Source: Dehalococcoidia bacterium
Lineage (GTDB): Bacteria > Chloroflexota > Dehalococcoidia > UBA2979
DNA length: 64,000 nucleotides
Direction: 5' to 3'
NCBI GenBank assembly: GCA_041390685.1
Contig: JAWKPL010000001.1
Location: forward strand, 2,545,269-2,609,268
Part shown: in pieces, positions 9,648 through 15,138 of the stretch
Layout of the letters: each line of letters opens with the position of its first letter
How positions within the stretch are numbered: the stretch's first letter is position 1
The notes under the pieces: model-generated
The model's input: the letters and a program-made list of their open reading frames with translations, nothing else
Told to the model about the DNA's origin: nothing
Databases searched by the model: none
Position numbers and translations under genes: made by a program

Positions 9648-9895
9648 TCCGGCAGGCCGTCGGACGAGGTCTCATCGCCAGGCACAACAACACGGATAGA
9701 AATGTCGGAAGTAATCGCACAGCGCCCGAAGTGCGGACGTGATAAAGAAACGCATCTCCGTCAACACGATCGATGGTGAATATTTGACTTTGTGATGGGT
9801 AAACCACCGCAACCGTCGATCGTGATTTGAAGTTATCCATCCGCAGCAATTACGGTTTCTCGCGCGGCAACACGCATTTCCAGAGGGGAGACCAT

Positions 9896-11683
9896 ATGTC
9901 AGATCCATTCGAGGTGCAGGAGGGGCGCTGGTCGATGAACCGACGCGCTCTCCTTCGGGGTGGCTCGCTCGCCGTCGCCGGCGTCGCCGCCGCTGCCCTC
10001 ATCGGCTGCGGCAGTGACGACGAGGAGTCGGACTCCGGCTCGGGCGACTCGACCGGCACCCCCGCGGCTACCGGCACCGCCGCCGCCTCCAACGTCGACC
10101 AGGGCCCGGGCCTGCCGTACCCGTTCAACTTCAAGGAGCCCGACAAGACCCCCAAGGACGGCGGCACCATGACCGTCGGCGTCGCCTGGGATGTCTCGAC
10201 GATGGACCCGACGAAGTCCGCCGCCGGCGGCACGATCACTGTCCCGAACATCGTCTACGACCGCCTCATCGGCTTTAAGTCCGGCATCCACTACGACCGC
10301 CTGAAGCTCGAGCTCAAGCCGGAGCTGGCCAGCTCCTGGGAGCGCAGCCCGGATGGCCTCGTCTACACATTCAAGATCCGCCCCGGCGTGAAGTGGCAGA
10401 ACGTGGCGCCGTTGAGCGGCCGCGCCTTCGTCGCCTCCGACGCCGCGTTCGCGTACGAGCGCTACCGCAAGGAAGGCGTCCACACCGCGATCTGGTCGGA
10501 TGTCGACAAGATCGAGGCGCCTGATGACGCCACCCTGAAGATCACACTGAAGAAGCCGCTCGTCGACTTCATCAACAACCTCGGCGGCCGTTACCAGACC
10601 ATCTTCCCGAAGGAGCTGGTCGAGAACGACGCCATCTCCAAGACACCCATCGGCACCGGTCCGATGATCTTCAAGGACGCCACTCCGCAGCAGCAGGTGA
10701 CGTTCACGAAGAACCCCGACTACTGGCAGGGCAAGATCCACCTCGACGGCTGGGTCTTCAGGATCATGCCGGACATCGCTGCGCGTACCGCTGCCTTCCG
10801 TGCCGGCCAGCTGGACTACGCGTACAGCATCGCCGCGAAGCTCAGCGAGGCCCAGAACATCGAGAAGTCGATGAGCGGCCTGCAGATGCAGATCACCGGT
10901 GGCCAGGCCGGTGGCTACGGCTTCGGCATGAACGTCCAGAACGAGAAGTTCAAGGATGAGCGTGTCCGCCGCGCCATCGCCCTCGCGCAGGACCACCAGA
11001 CGACGCTCCAGCTCATCTACGAGGGCCTGGGCGTCGCACTGCCCGACCAGTTCTGGACCTTCGTCTACGACACGGAGCCGTCGATCCAGAACGGCGACCT
11101 CGGTCAGTGGAACAAGTGGGGCGGCGACGCCGCGGAGGCCAAGAAGCTCCTCGAGGCCGCCGGCGCGTCCAACCTCACCATCGACGCCACGTACTACACC
11201 TACGCCGGCTACGACGCCACGCGCCCGGAGGTCCTCACTGACCAGTTCCGCCGCGCCGGCATCAACTTCAACGCCAAGAAGGTGGAGTACACGGAGTTCA
11301 ACTCGCAGTGGGTCGGCGCCAAGCTCGCCGAGGCCACCACGAGTGGCTGGGGCGCGCCGGGCTTCGACGCGGACAACTACTTCTACAACCAGGTCCACTC
11401 CACGTCGCCCGGCAACCGGCACCAGATCAAGGACGCCCAGATCGACCAGTGGGCTGAGCAGCAGCGCGTCGAACTCGACCCGGCGAAGCGCAAGGAACTG
11501 CTCAAGAACATCTGGAACCGCATCTGGACCGACCAGATGTACCGCATCCCCCAGAGCGGTGGGTACGCCTTCGAGCTGTACCAGCCCTGGCTCCGCGGCT
11601 TCCGTTCGGGTGGCCCCAACGGCAGCAGCAGCTACTTCTACGACTGGGGCGAGCAGGTCATCGACATGTGGCTCGACAAGTAG
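9896..11683 (+). CDS. ABC transporter substrate-binding protein, family 5 (peptide/nickel/opine type)
   Basis: About 595 aa from ATG 9896, which follows a GGGGAG RBS. Twin-arginine-like signal MNRRALLRGGSLAVAGVAAAALIGCGSDD. SBP_bac_5-like body. Confidence 0.85.
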   Translation: MSDPFEVQEGRWSMNRRALLRGGSLAVAGVAAAALIGCGSDDEESDSGSGDSTGTPAATGTAAASNVDQGPGLPYPFNFKEPDKTPKDGGTMTVGVAWDVSTMDPTKSAAGGTITVPNIVYDRLIGFKSGIHYDRLKLELKPELASSWERSPDGLVYTFKIRPGVKWQNVAPLSGRAFVASDAAFAYERYRKEGVHTAIWSDVDKIEAPDDATLKITLKKPLVDFINNLGGRYQTIFPKELVENDAISKTPIGTGPMIFKDATPQQQVTFTKNPDYWQGKIHLDGWVFRIMPDIAARTAAFRAGQLDYAYSIAAKLSEAQNIEKSMSGLQMQITGGQAGGYGFGMNVQNEKFKDERVRRAIALAQDHQTTLQLIYEGLGVALPDQFWTFVYDTEPSIQNGDLGQWNKWGGDAAEAKKLLEAAGASNLTIDATYYTYAGYDATRPEVLTDQFRRAGINFNAKKVEYTEFNSQWVGAKLAEATTSGWGAPGFDADNYFYNQVHSTSPGNRHQIKDAQIDQWAEQQRVELDPAKRKELLKNIWNRIWTDQMYRIPQSGGYAFELYQPWLRGFRSGGPNGSSSYFYDWGEQVIDMWLDK

Positions 11684-11759
11684 TCGAGCGGCATCGGTAG
11701 CTCGTGGGTCCGTCCCGTGTCACTTGATCGTGGCACGGGGCGGACCTACCGTTTTCTCG

Positions 11760-11849
11760 ATGGAATCGACCACCATGACGCTCCACGCGCACCACGAGCA
11801 TGCCCATGCCCGCCACGTCGCGCCGCCGCGAGGTTGTCTCCGTCCATAG
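11760..11849 (+). promoter_or_regulatory. putative his operon leader peptide ORF (attenuator)
   Basis: 29-codon ORF MESTTMTLHAHHEHAHARHVAPPRGCLRP has 6 His codons within 11 codons (CAC GCG CAC CAC GAG CAT GCC CAT GCC CGC CAC). It lies about 25 nt upstream of a strong terminator hairpin and about 150 nt upstream of hisZ. Confidence 0.55.
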
Positions 11850-11872
11850 ACCACATCGGACCGGTTGATAAC

Positions 11873-11905
11873 ACGCCGCGGCGACTCCCGCGGCGTTTTG
11901 TTGTG
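11873..11905 (+). terminator. intrinsic terminator / attenuator hairpin upstream of hisZ
   Basis: Perfect 9-bp inverted repeat ACGCCGCGG-cgactc-CCGCGGCGT followed by TTTGTTGTG. Confidence 0.7.
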
Positions 11906-11996
11906 CGAACCGCCCCCAGACCAAGGAACGCGACCATTGAGCACCGTAGAATCCCTCGAGGAGACCCCCGCGCCCTCCGGCGCCTCAGGAGACAAC

Positions 11997-12977
11997 ATGG
12001 ATCACGTCTGGCGCAGCCGCGGCATGCGCGACTTCGGCCCCGACGAGATGCGACGCTTCCGTCGCGCGGAGCGCGCCTTCCTCGATGTGACATCCAGCCG
12101 CGGCTACGTCGAGATCCGCACCCCCGCCATTGAGCCCCTCCACCTCTTCACCGCGACCGGTTCGCTGTCCCCACAACTCCTCGACCGCGTGTATTCATTC
12201 CTCGACTGGGACGGATGGAGCGGCGAACGCGTCGTCCTGCGCCCCGACAACACGGTCCCCGCCGCCCGCTGGTACGAGGCCCACTGGCACGGCGCCAGCC
12301 CCGCCCGCCTTTCCTACGTGCAGCCCGTCTACCGCTTCGAGCCCGGCGACGAGGAGCGCGAGCAATGGCAGTGCGGCGTCGAGCTGTTCGACCTCGGCGC
12401 GCTCGAGGCCGACCGCGAGCTTCTGGTGCTGGGCGCCGATGTGCTCGCCGCCCTTGGTCTGAGCGACCTGACATTCGAACTGGCGCACGCCGGCCTCGTG
12501 CGTGCCATCCTCGATGCCGCCGGCCTCGATCCGGTCGCGCAGCTTGCGACGTACGACCGCCTCCTCCAGGGCGACCCGACAGTCGTGACCGAACTGATCG
12601 CGCTTCACCCCGACCGTGGAGCGGCGCTGCGTCTGCTGTTCGACGTCGACGGGACGGGCGGCGGCTACATCGCTAACCTGCGGTCGAGCCTCGGCGCGGC
12701 CGTCCCTGGCGCCGAGGGCCCGCTCCTCGAACTCGAAGCGGCAGCCGCGGCCCTCGATGACGCTGGCTACTCGTATCGCCTGGTCCCGGCCACGGCACGC
12801 AACTTCGAGTACTACACCGGCCTCACCTTCCGCCTGAGCGCCGGCAGCGCCGAGTGCGTTCGCGGCGGCCGCTACGATGGCCTCGGCGGTGCGCTCGGCG
12901 ACCGCTCCGCGCCCGCCTCCGGCTTCGCAGCCGACCTCGTCGCCCTCGCCACGCTCCTTGAGGCGTACGAGGAATGA
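11997..12977 (+). CDS. hisZ: ATP phosphoribosyltransferase regulatory subunit HisZ
   Basis: 326 aa from ATG 11997. HisRS-like catalytic core without anticodon domain (MDHVWRSRGMRDFGPDEMRRFRRAERAFLDVTSSRGYVEIRTPAIEP). Precedes hisG. Confidence 0.85.
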   Translation: MDHVWRSRGMRDFGPDEMRRFRRAERAFLDVTSSRGYVEIRTPAIEPLHLFTATGSLSPQLLDRVYSFLDWDGWSGERVVLRPDNTVPAARWYEAHWHGASPARLSYVQPVYRFEPGDEEREQWQCGVELFDLGALEADRELLVLGADVLAALGLSDLTFELAHAGLVRAILDAAGLDPVAQLATYDRLLQGDPTVVTELIALHPDRGAALRLLFDVDGTGGGYIANLRSSLGAAVPGAEGPLLELEAAAAALDDAGYSYRLVPATARNFEYYTGLTFRLSAGSAECVRGGRYDGLGGALGDRSAPASGFAADLVALATLLEAYEE

Positions 12978-14383
12978 GCGGCGAGATTCGTGTCGCGCTG
13001 CCTCGCGGCGAGCTGCGCGAGGCGCTCGCCAAGCAGCTGCGCGCCGTCGGCTTCGTCGCTGAAGGCTACGGCGAGGGTTCGCGCGCGTACCGCTTCACCG
13101 TCACCGGCCACCCCGGCGTGGTCGTGCGCGTCTTCTCTGACCGCGACATCCCCATCCAGGTGGCGCTGGGGCAGTACGACCTCGGGATCACGCGCAGCGC
13201 CTGGGTCGACGAACTCCTCGTACGCTACGCGCAGGACTCGATCGTCGCGCTCCGCCCGCTCGACCTTGGACGCGAGCGCCTCGTCATCGCCGCCCCGCCC
13301 GGTACGGATCTCGATGCGCTCGCCACCTCACGAGTCGTGCGCGTGGCCACGGAGTACCCCCACCTCACGTCTCGCTTCATGAACCGTCTGCGCGTTCCCT
13401 CCTACCGCCTCTATGAGGTCTGGGGACAGGCTCAGGCCTGGCCCCCTGAGGACGCGGACCTCGCCGCCGTGCCGGAGCAGACCCTGGCCGGGGAAGACCT
13501 GGTCGCCCTCGCCACCGTGCACGAGGGCTCGCCGATGCTCATCGCGAACCGTGCTTCGCTGGCCACCCGCGACCTCGCGAGCGCCCTCGATGCCCTGCTC
13601 CGTCTACCGATGCAGCCGGCGCCGGTCGGGCCGGTCGACCCCCGGCCGCTGCCGCGTGGCCGCGCCCCGCGCCTCGCGGCGCCGCCCGAGCGCACGGCGT
13701 TCCGTATCGCCGTGCCGGACGGTCACGCGCAACGGCACACCGTTGCCGCTCTCGCCGAGGCCGGCATCAGCTTCGACGGCTACGAGGAGCGCGCCGCCGT
13801 CCGCCGCCCTCGCTCGTCGCTGCCCGGCGTCGAGGTGAAAGTCATCCGTCCGCAGGACATGCCGATGGCCGTCGCCCTGGGCGCGTACGACCTGGCCCTC
13901 ACCGGCCGCGACTGGCTCGCTGCCCACCTCTCGGCCTTCCCCGGCTCGCCGGTCATCGAGCTCGCCGACCTCCGCCGCAGCCGCTACTCTCTCGGCGCCG
14001 TCGTGCCCGATGACCTGCCAGCGGATACCATCGACCAGGCCATCGCGTACTGGCGTCGCGACGACCCGAACAGGCCCATCCGCGTGGCCTCCGAATACGT
14101 CGCGCTCGCTGACGACTACGCCCGCGAACGGCGCCTCGGCCGCTACCAGGTGATCCCCATCGCCGGAGCCTCCGAGGGCTTCGTACCAGACGACGCCGAG
14201 ATCCTCATCGAGGGTTCAGAGACCGGCACCACCCTGCGCGCCAATCGGCTGCGTATGATCGATATCACGATGGAGTCGACCAACTGCGCGATCGGTGCGC
14301 TGCAGCGCCCAACCGGAGCACGCGGCGAGATGCGCGACCAGTTCGTGGAGCGGCTGCGCGCCGCTGCCTCGGTGGTGGCATAG
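12974..14383 (+). CDS. hisG: ATP phosphoribosyltransferase, tandem-duplicated short-form HisG (two HisG domains in one chain)
   Basis: 469 aa. Residues 1-230 (IRVALPRGELREALAKQL...DIPIQVALGQYDLGIT...LIANRAS) and 235-469 (FRIAVPDGHAQRH...MPMAVALGAYDLALTG...GSETGTTLRANRLRMI) each resemble a complete HisG-S. Confidence 0.85.
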   Translation: MSGEIRVALPRGELREALAKQLRAVGFVAEGYGEGSRAYRFTVTGHPGVVVRVFSDRDIPIQVALGQYDLGITRSAWVDELLVRYAQDSIVALRPLDLGRERLVIAAPPGTDLDALATSRVVRVATEYPHLTSRFMNRLRVPSYRLYEVWGQAQAWPPEDADLAAVPEQTLAGEDLVALATVHEGSPMLIANRASLATRDLASALDALLRLPMQPAPVGPVDPRPLPRGRAPRLAAPPERTAFRIAVPDGHAQRHTVAALAEAGISFDGYEERAAVRRPRSSLPGVEVKVIRPQDMPMAVALGAYDLALTGRDWLAAHLSAFPGSPVIELADLRRSRYSLGAVVPDDLPADTIDQAIAYWRRDDPNRPIRVASEYVALADDYARERRLGRYQVIPIAGASEGFVPDDAEILIEGSETGTTLRANRLRMIDITMESTNCAIGALQRPTGARGEMRDQFVERLRAAASVVA

Positions 14384-14385
14384 CC

Positions 14386-15138
14386 GTGCCCTCCCTCGGG
14401 TCGCACCTGGCCAGCGCGCGCCTCCTCGCCGGGCGTCTCGCCCACTCCGGCATCGACGAGGACCGCGGTGCCTTTTACCTCGGCGCGACCGCGCCCGACA
14501 TCCGTGTCCTCACGCGCCTCGACCGCGAGCACACGCACTTCTTCACGCTCGACGACTTCGAGGATCAGGACTCCATCGCGCGCCTGTTCGCCGAGCACCC
14601 GCACCTGCGCGACGCAGTCGTCCTCGACGCGACGACCCGCGCCTTCATGGCCGGCTACCTGACCCACCTGCTCATGGATCAGCGGTACATCGAGCGCATC
14701 TACCGCGAGTTCTTCGGCGCGTCGTCTGCTTATGCCCAGGACCCGCGAGGCAACGTCCTCGATCGTCTGCTCCAGTACGAGATGGACCGCCGCGAGCGCG
14801 AGGACGTCGACGCCATGACCGAAATCCGCGAGGCCCTCGCGGGCACCAGCGCCGCTGCCGACGTCGGCTTCATCGAGCGCGCCACCCTGCAGCAGTGGCG
14901 CGAGGTGGCCTGCGATATCGCTGGCCAGCCGCCCACGTGGGACCGCTTTCAGCGCATCGCCAGTAGGCACCTGCCCGCGGCGGGCATCGATACCGAGGAA
15001 GCCCTCGAGCAGTTCTACCGCGACCTGCCCGACCTCCTGAAGGAGACCATCGACCACGTGACCGAGGAGCGCATGCGCGAGTTCATCGACCTGACCGTGG
15101 ACGACACCACCGATCGCCTGCGGGAGTACCTCCAGTGA
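14386..15138 (+). CDS. hypothetical protein, zinc-dependent phospholipase C / S1-P1 nuclease-like fold, embedded in his operon
   Basis: 250 aa. GTG start 2 nt after the hisG stop. Its 3' end overlaps the hisD start. His-rich N-terminal motifs (GSHLASARLLAGRLAHSG, HTHFF, HPHLRD, GYLTHLLMD). Confidence 0.5.
   Translation: MPSLGSHLASARLLAGRLAHSGIDEDRGAFYLGATAPDIRVLTRLDREHTHFFTLDDFEDQDSIARLFAEHPHLRDAVVLDATTRAFMAGYLTHLLMDQRYIERIYREFFGASSAYAQDPRGNVLDRLLQYEMDRREREDVDAMTEIREALAGTSAAADVGFIERATLQQWREVACDIAGQPPTWDRFQRIASRHLPAAGIDTEEALEQFYRDLPDLLKETIDHVTEERMREFIDLTVDDTTDRLREYLQ

Follow-up and report, generated by a model that had tools for sequence, protein, structure and literature searches.

The window, by which we mean the whole 64,000-nucleotide stretch of Dehalococcoidia DNA analyzed here, carries on its forward strand a hisZ-hisG gene pair, the products of which carry out the first, feedback-controlled step of histidine synthesis. 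The first gene and presumed regulatory target, hisZ (11997-12977), encodes the ATP phosphoribosyltransferase regulatory subunit (Pfam tRNA-synt_His, 4.5e-53; TIGR00443 is the top NCBIfam match), and the protein database contains an identical (100%) protein, named hisZ, that comes from a Dehalococcoidia MAG; HisZ homologues number in the thousands, and the nearest named ones are from Chloroflexota. The start of hisZ is ambiguous, with two candidates: ATG 11997, with AGGAG at 11987-11991 as its Shine-Dalgarno sequence, and TTG 11937, at which the 346-aa database protein would begin. The second gene, hisG (12974-14383, forward strand; Pfam and NCBIfam), encodes a fused tandem double HisG of 469 aa, and we treat it as co-regulated with hisZ because the two genes share 4 nt (ATGA) where hisZ stops and hisG starts.

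Several features of the downstream genes are recorded here as side observations. The two halves of the 469-aa hisG product are 30% identical to one another (E = 4e-17), with a HisG match in each half; every relative found in the PDB is a HisG chain with one domain, 206-300 aa long. In nearly all of the related loci with a complete ORF at this place, that ORF is about 460-545 aa long (mostly 461-494) and shares nucleotides with the hisZ stop codon (usually 4 nt, ATGA). A further ORF (14386-15138) starts 3 nt past the hisG stop and may be co-transcribed with hisZ-hisG; it matches Zn-dependent phospholipase C weakly, with a score just under the Pfam cutoff (26.3 versus 26.8 bits).

Upstream of hisZ, a gene for a family-5 solute-binding protein (SBP_bac_5 in Pfam; 9827-11683) is followed by its own terminator (11704-11759, forward strand; a 20-pair hairpin at 11704-11749 and then CGTTTTCTCG, called by the terminator scan), and this in turn by a 29-codon ORF at 11760-11849 (forward strand; MESTTMTLHAHHEHAHARHVAPPRGCLRP; stop codon TAG at 11847-11849), within which a second in-frame start is possible at ATG 11775. 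Six of the first 19 codons of this leader ORF (codons 9, 11, 12, 14, 16 and 19, read as CAC or CAT and beginning at 11784, 11790, 11793, 11799, 11805 and 11814) specify histidine, which places six His codons within 11 codons at 11784-11816 on the forward strand. The initial annotation had singled out both the ORF, with this translation, and the His run, and both are present as described. The run is the sole case of at least six His codons per 11 among approximately 110,000 stop-free 11-codon windows in the six frames of the 64 kb, and it arose in none of 100 first-order Markov simulations. The leader frame is open far upstream (10956-11849); an open frame by itself means little, because frames usually stay open at 69% GC.

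We assembled a comparative set by a HisZ-alignment scan that took one genome per species, resulting in 80 loci (L001-L080), all from Chloroflexota MAGs. A module consisting of a promoter, a His ORF, a conserved box, a stop codon and a terminator recurs in 45 of the 81 related hisZ loci. The ORFs of this family are 25-35 codons long and mostly contain 4-9 His codons in an H-x-H pattern. The conserved box (CCGTCGCG) comes next, then the stop codon and lastly the terminator. His-rich short ORFs precede hisZ in most loci whose HisZ is about 58% or more identical to that of the window, and among the more distant loci L050-L080 we saw no His-rich leader except in L060. A covariance model (R1), built from the stretch running from box 2 (described below) through the terminator, gave exactly one significant match per source in 45 of the 81 sources, in each case just upstream of hisZ and on the coding strand. 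The match in the window (11810-11903, forward strand; 59.7 bits, E = 1e-9) is the only significant one there, and no second copy was found in the window or elsewhere across 565 kb.

The alignment of 42 distinct leaders shows what has been kept in these ORFs (many family members are closely related, and cell counts therefore overstate the number of independent events). At the two positions of the core H-x-H, histidine is present in 42 of 42 and 41 of 42 leaders, encoded by CAT and CAC in 27 and 15 cases at the first and in 34 and 7 at the second, and the residue between them takes seven identities; the remaining His columns behave in a like manner. The number of His codons per leader ranges from 2 to 9 (median 5), and the amino-terminal residues are not conserved. 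Because histidine is kept while the choice of CAT or CAC and the intervening residue vary, selection appears to act on His as a codon class and not on the peptide or the nucleotide sequence. It is this comparative evidence, with homologous leaders in about 45 loci, that makes the predicted leader ORF real, and the conservation upon which the initial annotation had made its reading depend is thus found.

With regard to the position of the promoter, a further point on which that reading turned, a conserved motif resembling a promoter directly precedes the leader ORF, and there is a possible additional promoter past the terminator (considered below). The putative leader promoter (11724-11752, forward strand) consists of a -35 box TTGATC at 11724-11729, a 17-nt spacer and a -10 box TACCGT at 11747-11752, with 7 nt between the -10 box and ATG 11760. 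We searched for TTGnnn-N16-18-TAnnnT-N5-12-start with the start in the reading frame of the His ORF and found it in most of the 45 element-bearing loci (all but L025 and L051), with a -35 box that is mostly TTGACC or TTGATC; the family form is TTGAYC-17-TAnnnT, with the start codon 5-10 nt past the -10 box. A stricter pattern combined with a short ORF has one match on both strands of the window, namely that at the leader. A scan of 11000-13000 with an E. coli-type consensus called no promoter, and the promoter call consequently rests on conservation of TTGnnn-17-TAnnnT across the family.

We infer that transcription starts at or within a few nucleotides of ATG 11760. No Shine-Dalgarno sequence precedes this ATG, and because family start codons lie only 5-10 nt past the -10 box the leader transcript is probably leaderless or nearly so. 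As a side observation, the -35 box TTGATC lies, in the window, in the loop of the hairpin that terminates the SBP_bac_5 gene, and the T-tract of that 20-pair terminator overlaps the leader's -10 box and start; an overlap of the upstream terminator with the leader promoter was also seen in L001 and L051.

The intrinsic terminator that separates the leader from hisZ (11873-11905, forward strand) has a stem formed by 11873-11881 with 11888-11896, a CGACTC loop and a T-tail, TTTGTTGTG, at 11897-11905. The terminator scan calls the site at 11873-11896 (nine pairs, eight of them GC, a 6-nt loop and the tail TTTGTTGTGC), and alone it folds at -21.1 kcal/mol (z = -2.3). The GC-rich 9-bp hairpin and T-tail that the initial annotation had described are therefore as claimed, although the gap between the leader stop and the hairpin is 23 nt and not the 24 nt given; its placing of hisZ about 90 nt further on holds for ATG 11997 (92 nt after the T-tail), whereas TTG 11937 would give 32 nt. 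In the rest of the family, terminators were placed by alignment and covariance model, since a perfect-stem finder missed bulged ones and an RNAfold-based finder over-extended stems; placed in this way, the family terminator is 84% paired.

The tail following the stem is T-rich in 32 of 44 loci, the window included. The other 12 have at most three T in the 9 nt after the stem but have retained box 2, stem and His run, which leaves room for a switch that acts other than by intrinsic termination, at least in these members (for example, through Rho or through polymerase pausing under leader translation). We consider this unlikely, given the canonical T-rich tails in the window and 31 other loci and the fact that U-poor terminators have been reported in high-GC bacteria.

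Directly after the His run in every family member is a segment, which we call box 2 (11821-11830, forward strand; CGCCGCCGCG in the window and GCCGTCGCG as family consensus, read Pro-Ser-Arg), that is conserved at the nucleotide level: among the 42 leaders the first codon is CCG in 39, and the next is TCG in 33 and CCG in 9. The consensus of the terminator 5' arm, CGCGACGGC, is complementary to box 2. Pairing of box 2 with 11874-11883 is present in the minimum free energy (MFE) fold of 11808-11884, and box 2 pairing is present in the MFE fold of 11740-11910 also. Across the family, the nine-pair helix between box 2 and the terminator 5' arm is 91.5% paired on a MAFFT alignment, and 95.6% paired over 40 distinct sequences on an alignment made with a model that knew only the terminator structure. 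By comparison, slid controls were 21-53% paired, and none of 500 shuffles reached the observed values. Compensatory changes occur at three of the nine pairs (UA to CG in seven sequences, CG to UA in five and GC to CG in four). The change at the U-A pair (columns 20/101) produces an A·C mismatch in the terminator, indicating that selection at these columns acts on the antiterminator. Judged from the covariation, box 2 is conserved as RNA, and its pairing with the terminator 5' arm is the antiterminator.

In the window the predicted antiterminator is a long, imperfect hairpin (11821-11883, forward strand) with box 2 as the 5' strand of its base helix; its 3' strand (11874-11876 plus 11878-11883) is the terminator 5' arm, and its apical loop (11846-11857) contains the leader stop codon. 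The fold of 11808-11884 has an energy of -31.5 kcal/mol (z = -2.1). The antiterminator proposed in the initial annotation, in which gcgccgccgcg pairs with the left arm of the terminator, was essentially right, and the base helix of the hairpin covaries. The whole 171-nt region (11740-11910) folds no more stably than its shuffles (z = -0.54), and the global MFE is for this reason uninformative here.

That z-score, together with a frame that is open from 10956, is what a chance origin would have in its favor, namely a GC-rich open frame with a few CAC codons that happens to lie beside an unrelated terminator. We give this next to no credence, because conservation and covariation refute it; the uniqueness of the His run and the single promoter-pattern match in the window also speak against it. 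Another possibility is that the short ORF encodes a functional His-rich, metal-binding micropeptide, with the hairpin serving as an ordinary terminator or stabilizer; the H-x-H repeats do resemble metal-binding motifs, and the carboxyl-terminal Pro-Ser-Arg motif is conserved. The number of His residues (2-9), the length and all non-His residues vary freely, however, and Pro-Ser-Arg is conserved as nucleotides that covary with the terminator arm, including through a change that alters the peptide (Ser to Pro). With the element also lying always directly upstream of hisZ, we regard a micropeptide as very improbable.

Several individual folds hinted at an anti-antiterminator (a 1:2 pairing) involving a CGCGACG element, and we rejected this candidate because box 2 and upstream leader sequence pair no better than dinucleotide shuffles do: for the best such pairing the median z is 0, with 2 of 44 loci below -1.64. 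With no anti-antiterminator supported, the design is one of three elements and not the classical four. The 1:2 anti-antiterminator belongs to the E. coli paradigm, and membership in the class of ribosome-mediated attenuators does not depend on it. The initial annotation's assignment to ribosome-mediated attenuation of his operons is supported (by the His run, the terminator and the covarying antiterminator), with the refinement that the design is one of three elements.

Taken together, we think it highly probable that the element is a ribosome-mediated leader-peptide transcription attenuator, which would couple hisZ-hisG expression to the supply of charged tRNA-His. Transcription would start at or near ATG 11760, and a ribosome would translate the 29-codon leader as RNA polymerase moves ahead. 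When His-tRNA is scarce, the ribosome would stall in the His run (11784-11816) and leave box 2 (11821-11830) free; the terminator 5' arm (11874-11883), once made, would pair with it to give the antiterminator hairpin (11821-11883), the terminator would not form, and polymerase would read on into hisZ-hisG. When His-tRNA is plentiful, the ribosome would pass box 2 and reach the stop codon in the apical loop, and by stripping away the 5' strand of the antiterminator it would allow the 9-bp terminator (11873-11896 plus the U-tail) to form and end transcription. Leader translation, its timing and the response to histidine are what we infer in this scheme.

The geometry of the family bears on this model. 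In most of 44 loci, 6 nt separate the end of the last His codon from the CCG with which box 2 is read (median 6, range 3-15), and the distance from the end of box 2 to the end of the stop codon is 19 nt in most of the 44 (median 19). We modeled occlusion by folding nascent RNA that ends at the terminator 5' arm under a mask representing the ribosome. Masking the first three His codons leaves the antiterminator helix at a median probability of 0.96-0.97 (at the first, 33 of 36 loci exceed 0.5); under a wide mask this falls to 0.25-0.30, whether the mask is at the last His codon or at the stop. Taking the ribosomal helicase site to be approximately 11 nt downstream of the first nucleotide of the P-site codon, we used a narrower mask as well (-15 to +8 relative to the first A-site nucleotide). 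Over 38 loci, the narrow mask gives a median helix probability of at least 0.89 through the last His codon, 0.27 one codon further on and then 0 until the stop, an outcome that depends on the assumed ribosome boundary. On this reading of the model, a ribosome stalled on any His codon would leave the antiterminator intact, and a ribosome past the run would destroy it. When the full terminator is included, equilibrium folding under ribosome masks reproduces the switch in only 15 of 35 loci, since strong terminators prevail under those conditions, and the attenuator model thus depends on kinetics.

The region between the terminator and hisZ is also conserved. In the window, a motif AAGGAAC ... 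GTAGAAT (11923-11952, forward strand) contains both TTG 11937 and TAGAAT 11947-11952; in the leader clade as a whole the motif takes the form GGGAC/AAGGAAC ... GTA(G/C)AATG and lies 34-100 nt upstream of the conserved hisZ amino terminus. One reading of this conservation is that the attenuator is real and is one of two inputs, a second promoter with its -10 box at 11947-11952 giving basal, unattenuated transcription of hisZ-hisG. Consistent with this, TA(G/C)AAT is conserved between the terminator and hisZ in the leader clade, the window, L001 and L051 retain TAGAAT even though no ATG lies within it, and a distant clade has TAGAAT as a clear -10 box with TTGAAT 17 nt upstream. In the leader clade, however, no -35 element accompanies the motif, and in all 21 of the 21 loci with TA(G/C)AATG the ATG shares the reading frame of hisZ, over a variety of distances, and follows a Shine-Dalgarno-like motif (GGGA/AGGAA), so that a translation start fits better. 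A second promoter is accordingly possible in our view and rather doubtful. The pattern suggests that GGGAC..GTA(G/C)AATG is the hisZ start with its Shine-Dalgarno sequence; in the window, the 11923-11952 motif may mark where hisZ starts, may be a -10 box (active or a relic), or may combine the two.

The distant clade offers some observations of its own. Eight of its loci (L035, L043, L050, L056, L057, L063, L074 and L077) have no His leader and carry TAGAAT about 30-105 nt (mostly 30-60 nt) before hisZ; the TTGAAT -35 box was seen in loci of the clade other than these eight. The same eight share a conserved 5' UTR hairpin, GTCCCTGCCC-GAAA-GGGCGGGGAC, for which Rfam gave no match; it may represent another type of cis-regulatory element acting on hisZ-hisG.

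Some loci depart from the plan of the family. In L051 (82% HisZ identity; 2766-2906) the leader is degenerate (MTHAASRTRAHACSAMPLRARLRR, with only two His), and its start has a GAGGAG Shine-Dalgarno sequence and an ATG equivalent to that at 11775 in the window; antiterminator-like and terminator hairpins are kept, and the element may be an attenuator that is decaying or has been re-purposed. The leaders of L010, L021 and L034 likewise contain only two His; box 2 is recognizable in L010 and L034 and altered in L021, and in all three the usual terminator is replaced by a much longer GC-only hairpin (for example, GGCGGCGCGCCGGCGGCGCCGCC). These three loci score at chance level with R1 or are undetected by it.

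Leader-peptide attenuation is a textbook mechanism, documented mostly in Proteobacteria and in some Firmicutes and Actinobacteria, and a His attenuator before hisZ-hisG in 45 related Chloroflexota assemblies, all uncultured MAGs, would extend its range. The R1 model and alignments A3 and A5 make a clean comparative set that could be used for a new Rfam family, and they add regulatory annotation to a clade with hardly any known regulation. With its apparent leaderless start and its constant spacing between His run, antiterminator and stop codon, the element could, in addition, serve as a small natural system for studying how the place of a ribosome decides the way an RNA folds.

Searches against Rfam 15 gave no relevant match in 11500-12200 at E values up to 10 (the his leader family RF00514 included), nor at the gathering threshold in the window and 20 related loci, and in the same searches the T-box riboswitch model (RF00230) had no match. 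In the full-text literature we found no description of such an element for Chloroflexi or Dehalococcoidia.

Among known systems, the closest in principle is the hisL leader (RF00514) of Enterobacteria and other gamma-proteobacteria, in which an ORF with His codons likewise precedes the first his gene, terminator and antiterminator are mutually exclusive, and ribosome stalling reads the charging of His-tRNA. The window's element matches hisL in neither sequence nor structure: hisL has seven His codons in a row and the window has interleaved H-x-H; hisL folds by a multi-hairpin A:B/C:D/E:F scheme, whereas three elements and no 1:2 pairing are supported in the window's family; and hisL is led by a Shine-Dalgarno sequence and controls hisG...I, whereas the window's leader is probably leaderless and would control hisZ-hisG. 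His-specific T-box riboswitches of Firmicutes and Actinobacteria likewise respond to the charging of tRNA-His and regulate his genes by means of a terminator and antiterminator; in addition to lacking a match to them, the present element is too short and has a conserved translated ORF within it.

His-leader attenuators have been predicted before hisZ or the his operon in the Bacillus cereus group, Peptostreptococcaceae and Erysipelotrichales (PMC2965389; PMC9413887). Like the element described here, these combine a His leader, a terminator and an antiterminator before hisZ, lie outside Proteobacteria and are known from comparative genomics only; going by their descriptions, they differ in being from another phylum, in having unrelated sequence and in having three to five consecutive His codons (PMC9413887). 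For the start of the leader there are parallels in the 14 leaderless leader peptides predicted in Deinococcus deserti (PMC4007540) and in the Cys-responsive leaderless short ORFs shown in mycobacteria (bioRxiv 10.1101/834739). The leader in the window has TAnnnT a few nucleotides upstream and no Shine-Dalgarno sequence, as these do, and would resemble them further if, as the promoter motif predicts, its start codon lies at the 5' terminus of the mRNA or beside it; it differs in that the amino acid sensed would be histidine.

The mechanism is thus of a known kind, and the sequence family, the phylum, the likely leaderless start, the interleaved H-x-H pattern and the three-element layout appear to be undescribed. 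We lean, with some caution, toward regarding the window's element as the founding example of an undescribed attenuator family confined to one Chloroflexota clade. Such a family would be leaderless and built of three RNA elements, with the stop codon in the apical loop and a fixed ribosome ruler (the last His codon placed exactly 6 nt ahead of the antiterminator helix, as near as a stalled ribosome can be while leaving that helix intact), and its origin would be independent of the proteobacterial and Firmicute His leaders. Set beside those systems, it is not a new principle but an ordinary mechanism in a new lineage, with unusually clean comparative support.
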